From Escherichia coli (GTDB lineage: Bacteria > Pseudomonadota > Gammaproteobacteria > Enterobacterales > Enterobacteriaceae), in the NCBI RefSeq assembly GCF_041886205.1, contig NZ_CP169029.1: a stretch of 64,000 bases of DNA, one strand, 5' to 3'. The notes beneath the pieces were generated by a model. The model saw only the letters and a list, made by a program, of their open reading frames with translations, made no database searches and had not been told where the DNA came from. This document shows, one piece after another, positions 21,777 through 43,501 of this stretch; positions within the stretch are counted from its first letter, which is position 1; each line of letters opens with the position of its first letter. A program made the position numbers and the translations under genes.

Positions 21777-22730
21777 ATGATCGAAGTAAAACACCTGAAA
21801 ACGCTACAAGCGTTGCGGAACTGCGGCTCTCTCGCAGCCGCTGCGGCGACGTTGCATCAGACGCAATCCGCCCTGTCTCACCAGTTTAGCGATCTGGAAC
21901 AACGCCTTGGCTTCCGGCTATTTGTGCGTAAGAGCCAGCCGCTACGCTTTACACCGCAGGGAGAAATCCTGTTGCAACTGGCAAACCAGGTGCTGCCGCA
22001 AATCAGCCAGGCACTGCAAGCCTGCAATGAACCGCAGCAGACGCGTCTGCGCATTGCCATTGAGTGCCATAGCTGTATTCAGTGGCTGACGCCCGCGTTA
22101 GAAAATTTCCATAAGAACTGGCCGCAGGTAGAGATGGATTTTAAATCGGGCGTGACGTTTGACCCGCAGCCTGCGTTGCAACAGGGCGAGCTGGATCTGG
22201 TGATGACCTCCGATATCCTGCCGCGCAGTGGCCTGCATTATTCGCCGATGTTCGATTATGAAGTACGCCTGGTGTTAGCGCCTGACCATCCACTGGCGGC
22301 AAAAACGCGTATTACACCGGAAGATCTCGCCAGCGAGACGCTATTAATTTATCCGGTGCAGCGTAGTCGACTGGATGTCTGGCGGCATTTTCTTCAGCCG
22401 GCAGGCGTCAGCCCGTCACTGAAAAGCGTCGATAACACCTTATTGTTGATTCAGATGGTTGCCGCGCGGATGGGTATTGCCGCGCTACCGCATTGGGTAG
22501 TAGAGAGTTTTGAGCGCCAGGGTCTGGTGGTCACCAAAACCCTGGGCGAAGGCTTGTGGAGCCGACTGTACGCCGCCGTGCGCGATGGCGAGCAGCGTCA
22601 GCCGATTACAGAAGCATTTATTCGCTCAGCGCGCAATCACGCCTGCGATCATCTGCCGTTTGTGAAGAGCGCGGAGCGACCCACTTACGATGCACCCACA
22701 GTGAGGCCAGGATCACCAGCGCGCCTGTAA
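21777..22730 (+). CDS. metR: LysR-family transcriptional activator MetR
   Basis: 317-aa [44 protein letters not shown]... with HTH; divergent from metE. Confidence 0.95.
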
Positions 22731-23517
22731 TAAACGTTGGCCAGTGCGGCTGTTGGTGCCAGATAGCCAGGTTAACCAGCAGCCCTGCCGGAACGTGCAT
22801 ATTATTCATAATGCCCAGCGTTCCGGCGTCCACCTGCGTCGCGCCGTAGTTCCACATAAAGTAGCCAATCCCGGAAGCCACCACGCCAAGAAACACCAGA
22901 ATGCCCCATTGCAGCGTGGTTTGCGGCATTTTCTGCGCATTTCCCAGCAAGAACCATGCAATTACCGCCACCAGGAACGCGCCAAGATAGAACCACGCAA
23001 AGGCGTTATGCTGCGGCATCGGGCGAGTTTCCATCAGGCGTTTGTAACCCACCATGCCGATGGCAAAAGTGATATTGGAGAGTTGCACCAGCAACAAGCC
23101 AGTCCAGAAATGGTCGGTGACCTGATCATAGCGAATAATCCCGGCACCAATCACCGCCAACAAGGCACTAAAAGCATATCCCCAGCGCAGACGGCGCTTA
23201 CTCATGATGTCATAAATCAGCGTGATGTAGAGCGGCGTCAGTACGGTGAACAACAGCAGTTCGGAGACCGTCAGGTAGAGATAGGCGCGGAAACTCAGCA
23301 TATACATCACGCCAAGCTGCATCGCGCCCACCAGCATATACAGGCCGACTGTTTTCAGGCTATTGCCACGGGTACGCAGAAACGGCAGAAAAACGAGCGC
23401 CGCCAGGCCAACTCGCACCAGCACCGCAAAATAGCTATCGACGTGCCCCGCAAGGTACTCGCCATAAAAGCTAAAGGAGAAGGCCCACAGAATCGTGGTG
23501 ATGATAAGTAGCGCCAC
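22618..23517 (-). CDS. yigM: EamA/DMT-family membrane transporter YigM (BioP)
   Basis: 299-aa [20 protein letters not shown]..., about 10 TM segments; its 3' end overlaps the metR 3' end by 113 nt (convergent). Confidence 0.9.
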
Positions 23518-34891: not shown

Positions 34892-37054
34892 TTACACCGA
34901 CTCCAGCCGGGCGTAAGCTGCCACCAGCCATTTGATTCCCTGGCCCTGGAATGCCACCTGCAAACGGCTATGTTCGCCGCTGCCTTCCATATTGACGATA
35001 GTGCCTTCACCAAACTTAGCGTGGCGTACGCGCTGGCCGAGCTTGTAGCCGCTGTCGTTCTCGACCATCGGCGTACCCATCCGCTGATGGCTAACCGGGC
35101 GGCTTACCGTGGCGCGCAGGCGCACCTCTTCCACACACTCTTCCGGCAGCTCGCCAATAAAGCGCGACGGGCGATGGTAAACTTCTTTGCCATACAGACG
35201 GCGAGTTTCCGCGTAGGTCAGCGTCAGTTTCTGCATCGCGCGGGTTACACCAACGTAGGCCAGACGGCGTTCTTCTTCCAGACGCCCGCCTTCATCCAGC
35301 GACATCTGGCTTGGGAACATGCCCTCTTCCATACCAACGATAAACACCTGAGGAAACTCCAGACCTTTCGCCGAGTGTAGCGTCATCAACTGCACCGCAT
35401 CCTGCCAGGTATCCGCCTGCCCTTCACCTGCTTCCAGTGCCGCATGGGAGAGGAACGCCTGCAGCGGCATTAAATCTTCGTCTTCTTCGTTGTAGCTGAA
35501 CTGGCGCGTTGCCGTCACCAGTTCCTCTAAGTTTTCGATACGCGTCTGACCTTTTTCGCCCTTCTCCTGCTCGTACATGGTGCGCAGGCCGGAGTCTTTA
35601 ATTACCCGGTCAGTCTGTACATGCAGCGGCATATCGGCAGTTTCTTGCGCTAAGGCGTCGATTAATTCCATAAATCGCTGCAAGGCGCTGGCAGCTCGCC
35701 CGGCGAGCGCTTTTTCCTGCAACAGCTCACGACATGCCTGCCAGAGTGTTAACTGGCGATCGCGCGATGTCTGACGTACCACGTCCAGCGTCCGGTCACC
35801 AATACCCCGCGTTGGCGTATTCACCACACGCTCAAAGGCCGCGTCGTCGTTGCGGTTGGCAATCAGGCGCAGATACGAGAGCGCATCTTTGATTTCCTGG
35901 CGTTCGAAGAATCGCATCCCGCCGTAAATACGGTACGGCATACTGGCCTGCAATAACGCCTCTTCCAGTACACGCGACTGGGCGTTGCTGCGGTAGAGAA
36001 TGGCGCACTCGGCAAGCGCCCCGCCGTTGTCCTGCCAGGTTTTGATGCGGTTAACCACAAAACGCGCTTCATCGAGTTCGTTAAAAGCGCAATAGAGGGA
36101 AATAGGCTCACCGTCCGCGCCATCGGTCCACAGTTTTTTACCCAGACGCCCGTTATTGTTTTCAATCAGGGCGTTAGCGGCGCTCAGAATATTGCTGGTA
36201 GAGCGGTAGTTTTGCTCCAGACGAATAGTTTCGGCACCGGGGAAATCATTAAGGAAACGCTGAATATTCTCCACCTGCGCCCCGCGCCAGCCGTAGATTG
36301 ACTGGTCGTCATCACCGACGATCATCACTTTGCCGGTGTCGCCCGCCAGCAGGCGGATCCACGCGTACTGAATGTTGTTGGTATCCTGGAATTCGTCCAC
36401 CAGGATGTTGGTAAAACGTTCGCGGTAGTGTTGCAGGATATGCGGCTTGTTAAGCCACAGTTCGTGGGCGCGCAGCAGCAGCTCGGCGAAGTCCACCAGG
36501 CCCGCGCGGTCACACGCTTCCTGATACGCCTGATACACCTTCTGCCAGGTCTGCTCCACCGGATTACCGTAGCTTTGAATATGATGCGGACGCAGGCCTT
36601 CATCTTTCTGGCTGTTGATGTACCACATTGCCTGGCGCGGCGGCCACTGCTTCTCGTCGAGGTTCATGGCTTTGATCAGACGCTTAAGCAGGCGTAGCTG
36701 GTCTTCACTGTCGAGGATCTGGAAATCCTGCGGCAGATTGGCGTCCATATGGTGCGCACGCAGCAAACGATGCGCCAGCCCGTGGAAGGTGCCGACCCAC
36801 ATGCCGCCCTGGCTGGTGCCCATCAGTTGCCCGATACGATGACGCATTTCCGCCGCCGCTTTGTTGGTAAACGTCACCGCCATAATCGAGTATGGCGAGC
36901 AGTTTTCCACGCTCATCAGCCAGGCGATACGATGCACCAGTACGCGCGTCTTACCACTGCCCGCGCCCGCCAGCACCAGAAGGTTGCTGCGTGGCGCGGC
37001 CACCGCTTCGCGCTGTTTGTCGTTAAGGCTGTCGAGCAGGTAAGAAACGTCCAT
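34892..37054 (-). CDS. uvrD: DNA helicase II UvrD
   Basis: 720-aa product from MDVSYLLDSLNDKQREAVAAPRSNLLVLAGAGSGKT... (Walker A); the ORF-track start at 37243 is an upstream extension. Confidence 0.97.
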   Translation of the reverse strand: MDVSYLLDSLNDKQREAVAAPRSNLLVLAGAGSGKTRVLVHRIAWLMSVENCSPYSIMAVTFTNKAAAEMRHRIGQLMGTSQGGMWVGTFHGLAHRLLRAHHMDANLPQDFQILDSEDQLRLLKRLIKAMNLDEKQWPPRQAMWYINSQKDEGLRPHHIQSYGNPVEQTWQKVYQAYQEACDRAGLVDFAELLLRAHELWLNKPHILQHYRERFTNILVDEFQDTNNIQYAWIRLLAGDTGKVMIVGDDDQSIYGWRGAQVENIQRFLNDFPGAETIRLEQNYRSTSNILSAANALIENNNGRLGKKLWTDGADGEPISLYCAFNELDEARFVVNRIKTWQDNGGALAECAILYRSNAQSRVLEEALLQASMPYRIYGGMRFFERQEIKDALSYLRLIANRNDDAAFERVVNTPTRGIGDRTLDVVRQTSRDRQLTLWQACRELLQEKALAGRAASALQRFMELIDALAQETADMPLHVQTDRVIKDSGLRTMYEQEKGEKGQTRIENLEELVTATRQFSYNEEDEDLMPLQAFLSHAALEAGEGQADTWQDAVQLMTLHSAKGLEFPQVFIVGMEEGMFPSQMSLDEGGRLEEERRLAYVGVTRAMQKLTLTYAETRRLYGKEVYHRPSRFIGELPEECVEEVRLRATVSRPVSHQRMGTPMVENDSGYKLGQRVRHAKFGEGTIVNMEGSGEHSRLQVAFQGQGIKWLVAAYARLESV

Positions 37055-37112
37055 TGGCACCGCCGCGTAAAAATAGGTTGGGCGGAGAAGCGCAACGCCC
37101 TCCGCCAAAAAG

Positions 37113-37128
37113 CTGGGTATATATACAG
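37113..37128. promoter_or_regulatory. LexA (SOS) box in the uvrD promoter
   Basis: Minus-strand CTGTATATATACCCAG, about 60 bp upstream of the uvrD start; matches the known uvrD SOS operator. Confidence 0.85.
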
Positions 37129-37137
37129 ATTTGCTGA

Positions 37138-37854
37138 TTATATCAGCGAGGTCAGAGATGCCAACCGGGAAATTTCCAGATGCGGCAGTAAACGGCTGTC
37201 CCAGGTTTGCATCAGATCGCCATTTTCCGGTCTGATCCAACAAGCCTGCATTCCGCTGCGAATTGCCCCACCCACGTCAGTGGTGAGATCGTCCCCAACA
37301 TGTAAGATCTCGCCGATCGGCACGTTGAGTTTTTCCGCAGCCAGAAAGTACATATCGCTGAACGGTTTTGAGCGCCCGTGCGGGCCAGCGCGCAGCACAA
37401 ACTCAAAATAATCCCCCAAACCAAACAGTTCCGGCTGGGCGTTACCGTTGGTGATCGCCACCAGCGGCCATTTCTTCGCCAGCTGTTTTAAGGTGTCGTG
37501 AGTTTGCTGCGGGACGTCGATTCGGCTGCGCCATTTGGCAAAGTTAATCATTGCTGCGTGTGCGCCTGCACTGGCTTCTTCGGCACTCAGCCCGGCGTCG
37601 AGCATCGCTTGTTCAATCGATCGAAAACGCCAGCGCGTCACATCGTGATAAATCTCGGGTTCCGCTTCCCGTACCGCCTGGCGCAGGCGTTGCAGATCTT
37701 CATTCCGGAAGCTGCGCAGCGCCGGATGATAATTTTGCACAAAGGTAAGCGCCTCTCGCTCGGTGCGCAAAATCACCGGACGGTTATCGTAAAGGGTATC
37801 ATCCAGGTCAAAGGTGAGCGCCGAGATGCGCCCCAAAGGCCGGTAAAAACGCAT
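37138..37854 (-). CDS. yigB: HAD-family phosphatase YigB
   Basis: 238-aa [30 protein letters not shown]... with HAD motif DxDDT. Confidence 0.93.
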
Positions 37855-38750
37855 TATTTCCCCCGTTTGGCGCGTGGATGCGCCGCATCGTACACCGAGG
37901 CAAGGTGTTGAAAATCAAGATGAGTATAGATTTGCGTGGTGGAGAGGTTGGCATGACCCAGCAGCTCCTGCACACCACGAAGATCGCCGCTCGACTCCAG
38001 CATATGCGTGGCGAACGAGTGACGTAATTTATGCGGATGAACGTGATTATTCAGCCCTTGTTTTATGCCCCATTCGGCAAAGCGTTTCTGCACATTACGC
38101 GCGGAGATACGCTTGCCCAGTTTCGACAGAAAAAGCGCGTCGTCTTCGCTACCAAACAGGTCGCGCAAATCAAGCCAGTGCTCAATCCACGCCACAGCGT
38201 TGCGACCAATCGGCAGGCGGCGCTCTTTGCTGCCTTTCCCCATTACCCACACTTCACCAGACTCCAGGTCGAGGTGTTTGATATCCAGCCCCACCAGCTC
38301 GGAAAGACGCAGACCCGCGCCGTACATCACTTCCAGCATTGCACGGTCGCGTACAGCGAGGGGATCGTTGATATCAATATCCAGCAGCCGATTCATATCG
38401 TCGACGTCGATGTTTTTCGGCAGATGACGCGGCGCTTTCGGTGCCGAAACTCCTTTCGCCGGGTTAGCTTTGAGTTCGTTCTGGCTGACCAGCCAGTCAA
38501 AAAAGCTACGTAGCGCAGAAAGCCGTAACGCCAGACTTGCTGCTCCCAGCCCTTTACGGCGACTGCGTACAGCAAAATTGCGTACCATCGCTGCATCGCA
38601 TTGTTGCCAGCTTTGCAGGCCGTTTTCGCTGGCAAAATTGATGATCGCCTCAAGCTGACGCTGGTAGTTAAGTAGGGTTATCGGGCTAAGCTGACGCTCC
38701 ACGCTCAGATAACGTAGGTAGCGTTCTACATCGGTGTGTAAATCGGTCAT
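37854..38750 (-). CDS. xerC: Tyrosine site-specific recombinase XerC (chromosome dimer resolution)
   Basis: 298-aa [37 protein letters not shown]... with C-terminal catalytic [15 protein letters not shown]; sits in the conserved dapF-yigA-xerC-yigB operon. Confidence 0.96.
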
Positions 38751-39454
38751 ACGCGTTCAATCCAACGCTCCAGAAGCTCCGGCAACATCAGCGCAATTTC
38801 ATGAAGTAACTGCGTTCCCTGCCCTTGTTGATAGTGACTGGCATCGCGACTGGTAAACAGCACGATACCCAAATCAGCATCGCTTCCCAGCATCGACATC
38901 GCCACCGATCCCACCGCTTTCGCTTCCGGTAGCACCACCAGCAGCTCCGGTCCGTTAAGCGGCCCAAGATAGTGCTGTTCCTGCCCCAGACGCTGAATAC
39001 GCAGCGGTTCGAAAGACTGACGGCTTAATGCCAGATGAGTGTGGTTCGACGGCGCACCTAAGCGCCAGCGATCCGGAAACAGGCGCAGACTCGCACCAGC
39101 CAGGCCGAGATCGCGCGCCCAGCGGTGAAAGCGCATCAGCATATCATCGAGACTGCTGGCGGCGGTGAGACTGCGCTGCAGGTAGAGTAGGCGATAAAAC
39201 AGCCCTTCGTTGGCGATAGCCTGTTCCATCAACAGCGCCATGTTCTCCTCCAGAACATGAATATGATTACGTGCGCGGGCCATGTGCCATTCGACCAACG
39301 AAACGGTGCCGCGTACCGGATGCGGCACACGTATCGCTTCGACTGCGCGCGCATTGCGGATAAAAAACTCAGGATTTTTAATCAGATAATCGACAACCGC
39401 CCGGTCATCAAGCTCCGTGAGTGTTTCCTGCAGTTCTTCCCCTGGTTGCTTCAT
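38747..39454 (-). CDS. yigA: DUF484-family protein YigA
   Basis: 235-aa ORF; 4-nt overlaps with both the dapF stop and the xerC start. Confidence 0.9.
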
Positions 39455-40275
39455 AGATGAATAAATCCGTCGTAGACATGTACCGCCGGGCCAGTCATAT
39501 ATAACGGGTGACCCGGACCTTTCCAGGCGATATCAAGACGACCGCCGGGGAGTTCCACGCGTACTTCTTCGGCCAGCAAACCTTGCTGAATCCCTACCGC
39601 CACCGCCGCACATGCGCCGCTGCCGCAGGCCTGGGTTTCTCCTGCCCCACGCTCATAGACGCGTAAACGAATATGCTCGCGCTTAACCACTTGCATAAAA
39701 CCGATATTGGCGCGCTCCGGAAAACGTTCGTGGCTTTCCAGAACAGGACCAAGCGTTTCTACCGCCGCAGTATCGACATCATCGACCTGAATCACGCAAT
39801 GCGGATTTCCCATCGACACCACGCCGCATAAGATTGTCTGCTCGGCAGCGCGCATAATATAGGTCTTTTCCGCTTTGTTAGCGCGAAACGGCACGGCAGA
39901 AGGTTCGAAGTTGGGTTCGCCCATATTTACGCGGACCAGATCGTCATCGGTGACGGTCAGAACCATCCGCCCGTTGGCGGTGCTGACGCGGATATCGCGC
40001 TTATTGGTCAGCCCTTTCAGACGCACGAAACGGGCAAAGCAGCGCGCGCCGTTGCCGCACTGCGCCACTTCACTGCCATCAGCATTGAAAATGCGATAGT
40101 GAAAATCCAGTTCAGGATCATACGGCGGCTCAACCACCAGCAACTGATCAAACCCTACCCCCAGGTGCCGATCCGCCAGGCGACGAATCAGTTCCGGTGA
40201 AAAAAAGACATTCTGCGTTACCGCGTCGACGACCATAAAATCGTTGCCAAGGCCATGCATTTTCGAGAACTGCAT
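39451..40275 (-). CDS. dapF: Diaminopimelate epimerase DapF
   Basis: 274-aa product from [21 protein letters not shown]... with catalytic Cys motifs. Confidence 0.96.
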
Positions 40276-40311
40276 CATTTACTCCAATCACGCGGGTACA
40301 GAAACTGACTT

Positions 40312-40515
40312 TTAGTAATTCACCTGGGATGGACCATCGCCAGTGGCACGGTCGTTTTTATCCGGCACCGTGGATTGCGTTTGTGTCTCTACCGGTTTGG
40401 TCGGCGGCGGTGCATTTTTATCTGCAGGCGGGAAATAGAGCGGACCTTTCAGACCGCAGCCCGTCAGGCTGAAGAGAGTAAGTAATACAGTGAGTGCCTT
40501 AAACACGTTTTTCAT
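40312..40515 (-). CDS. yifL: Small lipoprotein YifL (LptM)
   Basis: 67-aa ORF MKNVFKALTVLLTLFSLTGC..., lipobox LTGC, Pro-rich tail. Confidence 0.92.
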   Translation of the reverse strand: MKNVFKALTVLLTLFSLTGCGLKGPLYFPPADKNAPPPTKPVETQTQSTVPDKNDRATGDGPSQVNY

Positions 40516-40703
40516 TATGGATTGCCTGTAAAGTTCATCGCTTTCTGCTTTCTATCATCGCAGGAGAAGGCGTAAAAGCAAGCGTTTAGCGACTCTTTAT
40601 GAAGTCTGAAAAGTGAGGAAATGCTGCGAGTATAACGCTTACTCGTGGGGATTTATGTTTTGCTGGTAGTTTCGTGATCGGCACCTCGCGCCAGGATGGC
40701 TTT

Positions 40704-42182
40704 ATGCACTATCGCAATGTGGTTTGTTTGTTGTCTTGTTCGTTGTTTTTATCGTCGGCATGGGGATGTCGGCTTGATGAGCCGGAACATAATATTTACC
40801 AGAAACAGGGAAAAGGCGTGGTGTACCTGCGCCCTTATAAAGAAACAAATCTTTCTCTACCTGACGTGAATTACAAGAGTTTGCGTCGTTTACCTAATTT
40901 ATTAATAGACGCAACAACACAAGATGAATGGAATAAAGAACCACCTCTGACTGATCTAACAACTGACAACCTCTATGAGGGCGCACAAGCCTGGTATCCC
41001 CATTACTCCTGGCATAGCGATGGTCGCTATATCCTCTACGCGGGTGAAGTAGTGCAAAATCCTCACGACGCACCACCCGTCGATATCGCCTCATTCAAGG
41101 CATGGGGAGATTTTGCCGCAGATAAACACAGTCTCTATTTTGAAGGCAAGCGCACCGATAACAATGGCGGGGGAAATCGCTTAGATATCAAAACACTGCA
41201 TCAGGTGGAATTCCGGCCTCCCTGGGATCCTGACTTACTGGGGCTGATATTACGTGACGCTAATTTCTTGTATATCAATGGGCATCGCCTCGCAGATCCC
41301 GATAGTTTCCGTGTGCTGGCACAAAAGTCATGGGATCAACGAGGAAAGTTTTCTACCGCGTTTAATCCCTGTGTGGCTATGCCATTTGGCCCATGGGATA
41401 CCCTGGCTCGTACACGGACCAAAATCCTGATCAACGGCGAACAGCTTGATGCCGACCCGGACACTTTTTCCGTCGTGCGCTGGATGCCCGGCTCACTCTT
41501 GACCTGGCGTGATAAAAACGGGCTGCAGCGTAAAGTCCTCGACAAGGAAAATCTGGCGTGGGATGAGGATTTAACAAAGCACTGTCTGGATTTTTCTCTG
41601 CTGGAAAAGAAAGTGTTCTGGCGTCGGGGGCCTGACTGTAAACAGGAAGAATTACCGGGACTCGATCCGGAACAGTTTCACCCCATCAGTGATGCTGTCG
41701 CACAGTATCAGGACTCGCTTTATACCATCATCGAAACAGAGTCTGGTGACCGCAAGCTGGAGATCGTGAAACTTGATGATCCTAATCTTATTATCAACAA
41801 ACGTTTCAACGCCGGGAAACGCCACGGCTATTTACTTACGCGTGCCGAAGGGTGGCCAAACCATTCCGGTTTACACGTGTTTGAATCTGATGGACCGCTG
41901 ATCTTACTGGATAACCGCTCTCCGGATGAACGCGAAGCCCATCTTAATGACCATCCCTTTTTGCGCAGATGGTATGCCCGCGATAACCGCTACGTTTACA
42001 GCTTTGATGGCGCGCAGCTCTGGCGATACCGCACCGCGGATCCGAAACAAGTTCGCTTAATCTGGAAGGAACAACATTCGGGATATGGCTATGGCGTAAA
42101 TTACAAAACGGGATATCTGGACGGAAAAATTACCGATGACGGCGAATTTATTCCTGCCCCGCGCAATGAGGCGACAAAATGA
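40704..42182 (+). CDS. Exported repeat protein with DKNYY-like motifs, function unknown (paralog 1 of a tandem pair)
   Basis: 492-aa ORF from ATG 40704 with AGGA 5 nt upstream (in-frame GTG at 40674); N-terminal hydrophobic signal MHYRNVVCLLSCSLFLSSAWGC; repeated D-x-x-SF...DK-x-x-LY-[FY]-x-G-K motifs such as VDIASFKAWGDFAADKHSLYFEGKR; not matched to any K-12 protein I recall. Confidence 0.75.
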   Translation: MHYRNVVCLLSCSLFLSSAWGCRLDEPEHNIYQKQGKGVVYLRPYKETNLSLPDVNYKSLRRLPNLLIDATTQDEWNKEPPLTDLTTDNLYEGAQAWYPHYSWHSDGRYILYAGEVVQNPHDAPPVDIASFKAWGDFAADKHSLYFEGKRTDNNGGGNRLDIKTLHQVEFRPPWDPDLLGLILRDANFLYINGHRLADPDSFRVLAQKSWDQRGKFSTAFNPCVAMPFGPWDTLARTRTKILINGEQLDADPDTFSVVRWMPGSLLTWRDKNGLQRKVLDKENLAWDEDLTKHCLDFSLLEKKVFWRRGPDCKQEELPGLDPEQFHPISDAVAQYQDSLYTIIETESGDRKLEIVKLDDPNLIINKRFNAGKRHGYLLTRAEGWPNHSGLHVFESDGPLILLDNRSPDEREAHLNDHPFLRRWYARDNRYVYSFDGAQLWRYRTADPKQVRLIWKEQHSGYGYGVNYKTGYLDGKITDDGEFIPAPRNEATK

Positions 42183-43501
42183 ATGGTCAAATAATCACTG
42201 TTGCACTCATCCTGTTGGGGCACATATTTCTGACGCCTGCTGTACAGGCCATAGGGTTCGACTATTACAATGATCACGGTGTTATGTCTTACGGTAAAGG
42301 TTATGGGGAGGATGAGAAAATCATTGCCCAATTTCCGAAGATGAACAGAGCCGATTTGCGCCTTGTGACAAATATATCCGGGGAGCGGGAGTTGGTGGAA
42401 GGCTATATACCCACCGATGAAATAAGCATAAAAAATGAGGAATACCACTGGGTGACAGACGGCCGCGTTATTCTCTGGCGTGGCAAAATCGTTAGCAATC
42501 CACCGGGAACACCCACTGTCGATATTGCCAGCTTTCAGGCTATGGGCCGCTTCGCGGTCGATAAATATAGCCTCTATTTTGACGGACAGCGCACCGAAAG
42601 TAATAGCGGCGCGTCACGTGTTGATCTGGCGACACTAAAAGCTATCGAAGGTAACTCTACCACGCTGGTGGATAGTAAAAATCTCTATTTGTCCGGTCGA
42701 CGTCAGGGGAGCAGCAGTAATGTTACTGTATTAGAAAAAAGATGGTGGGGTATTAATCCACGTCTTATGAGTGTAAACAGAAATTTGTATTCCAATGATC
42801 TGCTTATCCGCAGTGGGCAGAATATTTATTTAAATGGCGTTCACCTTACGGCGAATGCAGACTCATTTGAGATAATTCGCTGGAGACCTCATTCACTGCT
42901 GGTTTTTCGCGACAATAAGGGTCTGCATCGTTATCCCTTTGGTCAATTATCAGGCAAGGCAATACCCGTAGATGATGACGTCTCTTTTGAAGTAGGGGAA
43001 AGTCGCGTTCGCTGGCGTAAACAGCTCACGTCCGACCGTCAGTGGAGCAAGTGGATAGACCTACCAGGTATTGAACCTGAACAATTCCATCTGATTACTG
43101 GCAATATTGCGCAGTATAAAGATCGTCTGTATGTAACAAAATTATCGACTTTTGGTGAAGACCAGCTTGAAATAATTCTGCTGGATTCGCCAGACCTGGT
43201 CATTGATAACTCATTTAATGGCGGCAAACAACATGTTTACTTTATCCGCCAATTACGGTCAAAGAGCGTGCAAATTATTCCAACTAACGGCCCGCTAATT
43301 AAAAACGATCGCTTCGCTTATGACGATCGCAATGTTTATACATGGACCGATACAGAGGTAAGGATTACGCCCTCCCCCTGCCCGGCGAAAACACACGTCA
43401 GAGAAGAGAATGTGCGTGAACTTCACAACAGAGACATTATTATTCCGTTGACGGATGAATCATGCCAGAACGCAGCAGACGAGCAAACTTTGAAGCCCTG
43501 A
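42179..43501 (+). CDS. Exported repeat protein with DKNYY-like motifs, function unknown (paralog 2 of a tandem pair)
   Basis: 440-aa ORF; ATG overlaps the upstream TGA (ATGA); GAGG about 9 nt upstream; signal peptide MNGQIITVALILLGHIFLTPAVQA; aligns with the upstream ORF (VDIASFQAMGRFAVDKYSLYFDGQR, PGIEPEQFHLITGNIAQYKDRLY). Confidence 0.75.
   Translation: MNGQIITVALILLGHIFLTPAVQAIGFDYYNDHGVMSYGKGYGEDEKIIAQFPKMNRADLRLVTNISGERELVEGYIPTDEISIKNEEYHWVTDGRVILWRGKIVSNPPGTPTVDIASFQAMGRFAVDKYSLYFDGQRTESNSGASRVDLATLKAIEGNSTTLVDSKNLYLSGRRQGSSSNVTVLEKRWWGINPRLMSVNRNLYSNDLLIRSGQNIYLNGVHLTANADSFEIIRWRPHSLLVFRDNKGLHRYPFGQLSGKAIPVDDDVSFEVGESRVRWRKQLTSDRQWSKWIDLPGIEPEQFHLITGNIAQYKDRLYVTKLSTFGEDQLEIILLDSPDLVIDNSFNGGKQHVYFIRQLRSKSVQIIPTNGPLIKNDRFAYDDRNVYTWTDTEVRITPSPCPAKTHVREENVRELHNRDIIIPLTDESCQNAADEQTLKP

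Follow-up and report, generated by a model that had tools for sequence, protein, structure and literature searches.

Together with lptM (yifL), the genes dapF, yigA, xerC and yigB very probably (about 85% in our estimate) constitute a native transcription unit of the Escherichia coli core genome, lptM(yifL)-dapF-yigA-xerC-yigB, in which yigA and xerC are linked by co-expression in cis and not by a demonstrated partnership of their products. The unit was analyzed in a window of 64,000 nucleotides of E. coli DNA, on the minus strand of which all its genes lie. The dapF-yigA-xerC-yigB unit is real, ordinary and already known, and since the literature already describes the operon, the finding is not new. 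Its first description, as dapF-orf235-xerC-orf238, is said to be that of Colloms et al. in 1990. Being annotated, published and present in essentially every E. coli, the operon carries little weight as a genome feature.

The gene dapF (positions 39451-40275) encodes diaminopimelate epimerase (274 aa; TIGR00652, 348.5 bits against a cut-off of 114.65), yigA (38747-39454) a DUF484 protein (235 aa; PF04340, 301.5 bits against 24.2; NF008203, 407 bits against 254), xerC (37854-38750) a tyrosine recombinase (298 aa; XerC equivalog TIGR02224, 371.1 bits against 335.15) and yigB (37138-37854) an HAD-family phosphatase (238 aa; equivalog NF008018, 493.3 bits against 225), the Pfam and NCBIfam scores of all four exceeding the curated cut-offs. 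Each of the four open reading frames has a single stop codon, at its end, and the RefSeq coordinates in a 100%-identical genome are the same. A script run on the open reading frames and their junctions confirmed that the four genes are tightly packed and co-directional. The "four-gene operon" of the first-pass annotation was right in this respect and one gene short: 36 nt before dapF ends the small lipoprotein gene lptM (yifL; 40312-40515, minus strand), recognized by Pfam LptM_cons, by NCBIfam NF047847 and in the RefSeq annotation, and because papers place it at the head of the operon, which they list as yifL-dapF-yigA-xerC-yigB, the unit has five genes, of which lptM is probably the first to be transcribed. 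The same five genes have been reported to go up together in a sigma-70 variant strain.

In genes, order and strand relations the locus is like that of E. coli K-12, including uvrD downstream and cyaY and cyaA past lptM; the differences are allelic only, apart from an accessory insert of two genes that separates lptM from cyaY. This insert, present at full length in 1394 of 5426 complete E. coli genomes, had been placed directly next to the four-gene operon, from whose first gene, dapF, it is separated by lptM; it is lptM that the insertion adjoins. A PADLOC search gave no matches for YigA or for either of the neighboring accessory proteins. The operon segment itself was found in 5425 of the 5426 genomes and thus belongs to the core genome; over 3.6 kb its identity is 95-99% with the majority of E. 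coli genomes and reaches 99% or more with only five.

The products of three of the genes are readily assigned. DapF has both catalytic cysteines (C73 and C217). XerC scores 281.9 bits with the XerD model, which is under the cut-off of 329.6 and identifies it as XerC, not XerD; it matches both the N-terminal SAM-like domain (PF02899) and the C-terminal catalytic domain (PF00589) and has all catalytic residues (R148, K172, H240, R243, H266 and Y275). To judge from its sequence it is the recombinase for chromosome-dimer and plasmid-multimer resolution; xerD, dif and ftsK lie outside the window. YigB, with its DxD motif (DLD at residues 16-18), is the characterized 5-amino-6-(5-phospho-D-ribitylamino)uracil/FMN phosphatase of the riboflavin pathway and has served as the E. 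coli positive-control ARAPDP phosphatase (PMC12051542). Of the two genes counted earlier as being of poorly known function, only yigA therefore deserves the description, YigB being biochemically characterized.

YigA has no established function, as the first-pass annotation had stated, and its mentions in the literature on yigA and DUF484 are incidental: the protein does not bind RNA in Salmonella, the gene appears in lists of expression or mutation changes, and the listed genotype of strain DH10B includes a yigA nonsense allele. The protein covers positions 2-219 of the 219 positions of the PF04340 profile; at its N-terminus it has short helices, which are followed by a long one (residues ~53-97) and then by a GAF domain (~102-228). 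It matches PDB entry 3e98 by sequence (E = 3.5e-13), and with its AlphaFold2 model (mean pLDDT 91.1) Foldseek returned 3e98 as the best match (probability 1.00), followed by other GAF domains. YigA is therefore confidently predicted to be a long helix joined to a GAF domain, like 3e98.

The next gene downstream of yigB is uvrD (34892-37054, minus strand; DNA helicase II according to the RefSeq annotation and the translated open reading frame). The operon does lie directly upstream of this SOS-regulated gene, as had been claimed: a uvrD promoter-like site TTGGCA-16-TATAAT (37137-37164, minus strand; 11 of 12 matches, with a TG extension) lies within the last yigB codons and a LexA box, CTGTATATATACCCAG (37113-37128, minus strand), can be read just past the yigB stop codon, the consensus of SOS boxes being CTG-N10-CAG. 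In the uvrD leader a G+C-rich hairpin, GGCGGAGGGCGTTGCGCTTCTCCGCC (37081-37106, minus strand), is followed by a T-rich stretch; the 86-nt yigB-uvrD intergenic region folds with -21.2 kcal/mol. The operon transcripts possibly end at this hairpin, or it may attenuate uvrD.

Within the operon the only terminator-like site on the coding strand was a weak stem of 5 bp in xerC, and the whole scanned region had 6 such sites where 4.6 were expected from shuffled sequences. In a simple scan no sigma-70 consensus turned up ahead of lptM or inside yigA or xerC, and the coding strand of the operon had no convincing internal promoter of either the sigma-70 or the sigma-54 type. The five genes, for an envelope lipoprotein, diaminopimelate epimerase, a GAF protein, the XerC recombinase and an HAD phosphatase, are thus predicted to be carried on a single mRNA, which would run up to the separate, LexA-repressed uvrD promoter.

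The overlaps of 4, 4 and 1 nt noted in the first-pass annotation were verified by script. The stop codon of dapF and the start codon of yigA share ATGA (39451-39454, minus strand), those of yigA and xerC likewise ATGA (38747-38750) and those of xerC and yigB TAATG, with one common nucleotide (37854). At such junctions a ribosome ending one frame could stay on the mRNA and begin the next, and translational coupling across them is plausible. It fits yigA and xerC in particular, because the Shine-Dalgarno sequences ahead of both are weak: that of yigA (-3.3 kcal/mol) falls in the weakest quarter of a control set of 38 genes, and xerC has only a distant, badly spaced GGAG. With neither gene having a well-placed Shine-Dalgarno sequence, coupling would make the output of XerC depend on the ribosomes arriving from dapF. 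The gene yigB may initiate independently, since its own Shine-Dalgarno sequence is strong (GGGGGA, -8.6 kcal/mol); that of dapF is good (GGAG).

The overlaps could also be incidental genome compaction, the genes using their own ribosome-binding sites, xerC and yigB having an internal promoter, and coupling or stoichiometry being irrelevant. We consider this unlikely, although several observations are in its favor. Stop and start codons often share 1 or 4 nt, as they do in 8 of 31 same-strand neighboring pairs in 50 kb of the window (three of the eight in this operon), and a single overlap is therefore unremarkable. The Shine-Dalgarno sequences of yigB and dapF are good, and the junctions are open to direct initiation: a search for RNA structure masking the start codons at the junctions found none, with z-scores of +0.5 to +1.7. 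Finally, a genomic SELEX study of K-12 lists a weak RpoN/NtrC site between the two genes yigA and xerC, at the head of a xerC-yigB unit. We do not regard this site as supported by the sequence, because near the yigA/xerC junction the coding strand has no sigma-54 consensus and matches across the window are at chance level (40 against 45 expected). Besides the lack of sigma-70 consensus sequences within yigA and xerC and the poor spacing of their Shine-Dalgarno sequences, it argues against mere compaction that in other Enterobacterales the overlaps are nearly invariant. Among the matches listed, the dapF/yigA overlap is found in 29 of 34 loci, the 4-nt yigA/xerC overlap in 30 of 31 and the xerC/yigB overlap in 26 of 26 (by 1 nt in 24 of them), a conservation that exceeds chance.

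At least ~130 loci of other bacteria, the majority gammaproteobacterial, were surveyed for gene order. They were retrieved by a degenerate DNA pattern, designed by hand to match the motif PHxxxGxVSLVEx[H/Q], so that the sample is biased to lineages that keep the motif. Among the matches listed, a Xer recombinase gene directly follows the DUF484 gene in 93 of 99 loci, dapF directly precedes it in 97 of 103, and a yigB-like gene comes after xerC in 59 of 78. The order is also kept in all eight distant DUF484 homologues with enough flanking DNA; a protein search named further DUF484 members in Pseudomonas, Thiothrix and Sedimenticola, whereas word-indexed protein searches yielded little beyond close relatives. 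The dapF-DUF484-xerC core would thus be an old gene order, inherited across Gammaproteobacteria. The conservation of the yigA-xerC coupling, raised in the first-pass annotation, is borne out strongly for the adjacency of the two genes; for the overlap it is near-universal in Enterobacterales and looser elsewhere, the 4-nt form being found, among the matches listed, in only 9 of 69 loci of other taxa and an overlap of any length in 24 of the 69. Since a gap often separates DUF484 from xerC outside the Enterobacterales, the overlap is not required for keeping the gene order. From these comparisons the best-conserved junction is the ATGA of dapF/DUF484 (a 4-nt overlap at 78 of 111 junctions overall and at 47 of 75 outside the Enterobacterales, among the matches listed). 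Where the trio breaks, DUF484 is, as gene order has it, the hub that stays with either neighbor: five Luminiphilus/Halieaceae loci have dapF-DUF484-HAD without xerC between, and six loci from Woeseiaceae and other Gammaproteobacteria have DUF484-xerC without dapF upstream (among the matches listed).

A further comparison is with Pseudomonas aeruginosa. In its lppL operon xerC (sss) comes after PA14_69700 and before PA14_69720; lppL, lysA and dapF presumably lie upstream of PA14_69700. From its position by xerC, the title of 3e98, which names PA5279, and the Stutzerimonas loci we infer that PA14_69700 is the DUF484 gene. PA5279 is the P. aeruginosa DUF484 protein whose solved GAF structure, 3e98, matches E. 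coli YigA. The Stutzerimonas loci, which represent the Pseudomonadaceae in the sample, have the DapF-DUF484-XerC core of E. coli, and in two of the three xerC is followed by an HAD gene like yigB; where E. coli has an overlap of DUF484 and xerC, they have a gap of ~100 nt.

When PA14_69700, which lies upstream of xerC, was removed by a markerless in-frame deletion, the mRNA of xerC and of the next gene fell. The ciprofloxacin and pyocin phenotypes of the mutant were restored by xerC alone, which indicates that in PA14 XerC works without the protein encoded upstream; these XerC-dependent phenotypes would come from reduced expression of xerC. The wrinkled biofilm phenotype was not restored by xerC, and because it is independent of xerC, the protein at the DUF484 position has some role of its own. 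An internal promoter or a change in mRNA stability would account for the effect on mRNA no less well than coupling; an internal promoter in the deleted gene, which would explain the loss of downstream mRNA, would speak for incidental compaction. On balance the link between yigA and xerC is best read as co-expression in cis.

What YigA itself does may be sought on the side of either neighbor. One proposal is that it works together with DapF in the cell-wall/lysine branch, for instance as a sensor of diaminopimelate or of a peptidoglycan precursor, with xerC as a passenger. This we hold to be improbable, although the dapF/DUF484 junction is the best conserved, DUF484 remains by dapF in the loci without xerC, and lysA and lptM are often found just upstream of dapF in distant loci (in other sampled non-enteric loci lysA lies between lptM and dapF, unlike in E. 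coli). Against it stand the six loci in which DUF484-xerC lacks dapF upstream and the fact that DapF is a well-studied stand-alone enzyme. One contig (L011) contains a fused DapF-DUF484 open reading frame that would have served as a Rosetta stone for an association of the two proteins; it was rejected because the DapF C-terminus is out of register, which points to a frameshift in the last ~10 dapF codons and not to a designed fusion.

The other proposal, a functional interaction between YigA and XerC as hinted at in the first-pass annotation, would make YigA a partner or regulator at the protein level, a GAF sensor binding XerC or the XerCD-dif complex and tuning dimer resolution. The adjacency of the genes in 93 of the 99 loci listed and in all eight distant contexts, the ATGA overlap kept in Enterobacterales and the sensor-type GAF fold of YigA, which has no output domain of its own and would therefore need another protein to act through, could be cited in its favor. 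It is countered by the rescue of the PA14 pyocin and ciprofloxacin phenotypes by xerC alone, by the five Luminiphilus/Halieaceae loci that keep dapF and DUF484 with no xerC between DUF484 and the HAD gene and, as a weak negative, by an AlphaFold2 model of linked YigA and XerC (31 paired sequences, a shallow alignment), in which the two were not placed confidently relative to each other (pTM 0.38) although both proteins were folded confidently. Moreover, XerCD-dif recombination has been reconstituted with FtsK alone, and XerC is functional in bacteria without DUF484. A protein-level partnership of YigA and XerC is thus not supported, and we give it little chance.

Somewhat broader, and in our opinion equally doubtful, is the idea that YigA is a ligand-sensing GAF protein tying envelope or metabolic status to dimer resolution by XerC or to surface and biofilm behavior. 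It might respond to a metabolite related to diaminopimelate or peptidoglycan, which would agree with the conserved presence of dapF next to it. The idea gains some room from the shallowness of the AlphaFold2 test, from the restriction of the PA14 complementation to pyocin and ciprofloxacin phenotypes and from the biofilm phenotype that does not depend on xerC. If true, such a role would explain why dapF, DUF484 and xerC are kept together across Gammaproteobacteria and other proteobacteria.

Co-expression in cis has a practical consequence. Mutations, insertions or deletions in dapF or yigA are likely to alter the level of XerC, as in P. aeruginosa, and phenotypes of yigA/DUF484 mutants therefore need controls for the level of xerC. 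The question of what YigA senses or does is also narrowed, in that DUF484 stays with one neighbor or the other where the trio breaks and in that for the PA14 pyocin and ciprofloxacin phenotypes XerC has no need of the protein at the DUF484 position.

The core order is not confined to loci with a yigB-like gene. Metagenomic loci of the type dapF-DUF484-xerC-hslV-hslU, an order typical of Betaproteobacteria, share the core and mostly a dapF/DUF484 overlap of 4 nt or similar; unlike in E. coli, xerC is followed by hslVU and there is no yigB-like HAD gene. The DUF484 proteins of these loci are only ~25-30% identical to YigA.

On the minus strand of the window dapF (39451-40275; TIGR00652, 348.5 bits), yigA (38747-39454; PF04340, 301.5 bits; NF008203, 407 bits), xerC (37854-38750; TIGR02224, 371.1 bits against a cut-off of 335.15) and yigB (37138-37854; NF008018, 493.3 bits) are complete open reading frames, each checked to have a start codon and to end in one terminal stop codon. 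All four products exceed the curated cut-offs of the Pfam and NCBIfam profiles, and the XerC protein scores under the cut-off of the NCBIfam model for XerD. The catalytic residues of XerC (R148, K172, H240, R243, H266 and Y275), both cysteines of DapF and the DxD motif of YigB are intact. A script check of the sequence found that dapF/yigA and yigA/xerC each share 4 nt (ATGA) and xerC/yigB 1 nt (TAATG), all on the minus strand, which bears out the four reading frames and their overlaps of 4, 4 and 1 nt in the first-pass annotation.

The unit is a known E. coli operon, real, ordinary and already known, which was reportedly first described by Colloms et al. in 1990 as dapF-orf235-xerC-orf238. 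Relative to that operon the arrangement is unchanged here, the differences being only allelic divergence and a neighbouring accessory insert. Along the minus strand lptM (yifL) is separated from dapF by 36 nt; yigA, xerC and yigB come next, and uvrD begins after a further 83-nt gap. Because two papers give the unit as yifL-dapF-yigA-xerC-yigB, with yifL at its head, it comprises five genes rather than the four originally assigned to it, and the accessory insert, taken at first to adjoin dapF directly, sits beyond lptM. One paper describes a joint rise of the five genes.

The yigB end holds the region's single strong sigma-70-like site (TTGGCA-16-TATAAT; 37164-37137, minus strand), and the yigB stop codon falls partly or wholly within its -10 element. 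Downstream of this site comes first a LexA box (CTGTATATATACCCAG; 37128-37113, minus strand) and then a G+C-rich hairpin (37106-37081, minus strand). Together they are the uvrD control region, in agreement with the earlier placement of the operon upstream of SOS-regulated uvrD.

In 50 kb of the window, overlaps of 1 or 4 nt occur in 8 of 31 same-strand neighbor pairs, three of the eight in the operon. A single overlap of this kind is thus no more than chance; the non-random part is the conservation. An exhaustive profile search for DUF484, the family of YigA, returned 868 clusters, and for nine distant DUF484 proteins (about 25-37% identity to YigA), obtained by profile and follow-up search, the encoding contigs were inspected. 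The order dapF-DUF484-xerC was present in 8/8 of these contexts with sufficient flanking DNA, xerC being followed by a HAD gene in four and by hslVU in the other four. A second sample, one genome per species, was collected with a degenerate DNA pattern for PHxxxGxVSLVEx[H/Q], the most conserved motif of the family; it yielded at least 120 loci, mostly from Gammaproteobacteria of many orders, is biased by the motif and leaves out the Alphaproteobacteria. The loci were annotated with purpose-built profiles, and downstream start codons were picked by homology. Among the matches listed, a Xer-type recombinase directly follows DUF484 in 93 of the 99 loci that leave space for it, DapF directly precedes it in 97 of 103, and a YigB-like HAD gene comes after XerC in 59 of 78. 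The overlaps, again among the matches listed, are found in Enterobacterales versus other taxa at 29/34 versus 50/75 dapF/DUF484 junctions, 30/31 versus 24/69 DUF484/xerC junctions and 26/26 versus 13/32 xerC/yigB junctions; in Stutzerimonas a gap of about 100 nt lies ahead of xerC. Conservation of the yigA-xerC pair holds for adjacency, and for the overlap in Enterobacterales but less so elsewhere.

The trio is broken in two ways. At five Luminiphilus/Halieaceae loci (L012, L019, L045, L050, L101) the HAD phosphatase gene is immediately 3′ of DUF484 in the order dapF-DUF484-HAD, without xerC between, and at six loci from Woeseiaceae and other Gammaproteobacteria (L048, L052, L081, L095, L114, L115) DUF484-xerC lacks an upstream dapF. 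DUF484 therefore stays with either neighbor and is not bound to the one or the other. A single metagenome-assembled genome has the DUF484-xerC pair on two contigs, L114 and L115, which could reflect duplication or mixed strains. At locus L011 (4001-5548) an open reading frame of 515 amino acids (P0263) joins DapF and DUF484; its DapF part loses register with relatives toward the C-terminus, so a frameshift or an assembly error where the two genes overlap is likelier than a true fusion. Twelve separate stretches of P0200, a protein of 2693 amino acids in the representative library, match YigA (E=2.7e-17); it is apparently large and repetitive, with segments that resemble DUF484.

From the sequence, translational coupling appears plausible for yigA and xerC (probability about 0.6). 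Besides the ATGA, ATGA and TAATG overlaps themselves, it is favored by the weak Shine-Dalgarno pairing of yigA (-3.3 kcal/mol, in the lowest-strength quartile of 38 control genes) and by the lack of a well-spaced Shine-Dalgarno site for xerC. Neutral or against it are the strong GGGGGA site ahead of yigB, the retention of the same gene order in lineages without overlaps, and the junction RNAs, which have less structure than shuffled controls and so leave direct initiation unhindered. A weak RpoN/NtrC site is listed between yigA and xerC in a genomic SELEX study; no sigma-54 consensus was found there on the coding strand, and matches in the window (40 versus 45 expected) are at chance level. 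One of these chance-level matches, with one mismatch, lies antisense within yigB (TGGCGCAGGCGTTGCA; 37679-37694, plus strand).

A functional interaction of YigA with XerC, which the first-pass annotation had hinted at, is without support. The counterpart operon of P. aeruginosa has been studied genetically: in PA14, PA14_69700 lies directly upstream of xerC within the lppL operon, and its markerless in-frame deletion lowers mRNA levels for xerC and the gene that follows it. We take PA14_69700 to be the DUF484 gene from its position, the title of PDB entry 3e98, [quoted passage not shown], and the Stutzerimonas loci. Since xerC alone reverses the excess pyocin and ciprofloxacin sensitivity of the mutant, the link to the XerC phenotypes is in cis and XerC works without the PA14_69700 protein; the wrinkled biofilm is not reversed, so this protein has a separate function as well. 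In a crude complex test with AlphaFold2 (monomer model), YigA and XerC joined by a 25-residue linker and supplied with a shallow, 31-row same-locus paired alignment both folded confidently, but with a pTM of 0.38 there was no confident mutual arrangement, which is weak evidence against a complex.

That the role of YigA is not well established still stands. Its sequence matches 3e98 (E=3.5e-13), and the confident AlphaFold2 model from 70 homologues (mean pLDDT 91.1, pTM 0.74) places short helices at the N-terminus, followed by a long helix (about residues 53-97) and a GAF domain (about residues 102-228), with no output domain; the first Foldseek match is 3e98, ahead of further GAF sensor domains. 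Conservation is strongest in the PHxxxGxVSLVE motif, R62, N82, G164 and S183. In Salmonella YigA did not bind RNA, and PADLOC has no model matching it. A sensor role in which YigA links envelope or metabolic state to XerC or surface behavior is quite improbable. E. coli DH10B, whose listed genotype has a yigA nonsense mutation (PMC7657623, strain table), is a natural strain for asking whether losing yigA translation reduces XerC. YigB, initially counted with YigA as poorly known, is a characterized phosphatase: NCBIfam names it 5-amino-6-(5-phospho-D-ribitylamino)uracil phosphatase, and a 2025 JBC paper used the E. coli enzyme as positive control, noting that it also dephosphorylates FMN and that its deletion causes no riboflavin auxotrophy (PMC12051542).

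All but one of the 5426 complete E. coli genomes (5425) contain the 3.6-kb operon segment, and in the four that match it with 100% identity RefSeq annotates exactly these genes. The allele in the window (37000-40600) is uncommon, only 5 of the 5425 having at least 99% identity over 3.6 kb and the others 95-99%, which suggests a minority lineage or a segment recombined beside the accessory insert. This insert (40704-43501, plus strand, between lptM and cyaY) consists of two genes with a 4-nt overlap for hypothetical proteins of 492 and 440 amino acids with signal-peptide-like N-termini. Searches of NCBIfam and PADLOC with both proteins gave no match; matches to the DKNYY family are weak (26.8 bits against a cut-off of 25 for the 440-residue protein; 21.8, below the cut-off, for the other). 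Among 5426 E. coli genomes, 1394 carry both genes of the pair at full length, and most of the rest have just a short remnant annotated as DKNYY family protein. Elsewhere in the window the convergent genes metR (21777-22730, plus strand) and bioP (22618-23517, minus strand), as annotated by RefSeq in an identical strain, share 113 nt at their 3′ ends (22618-22730).
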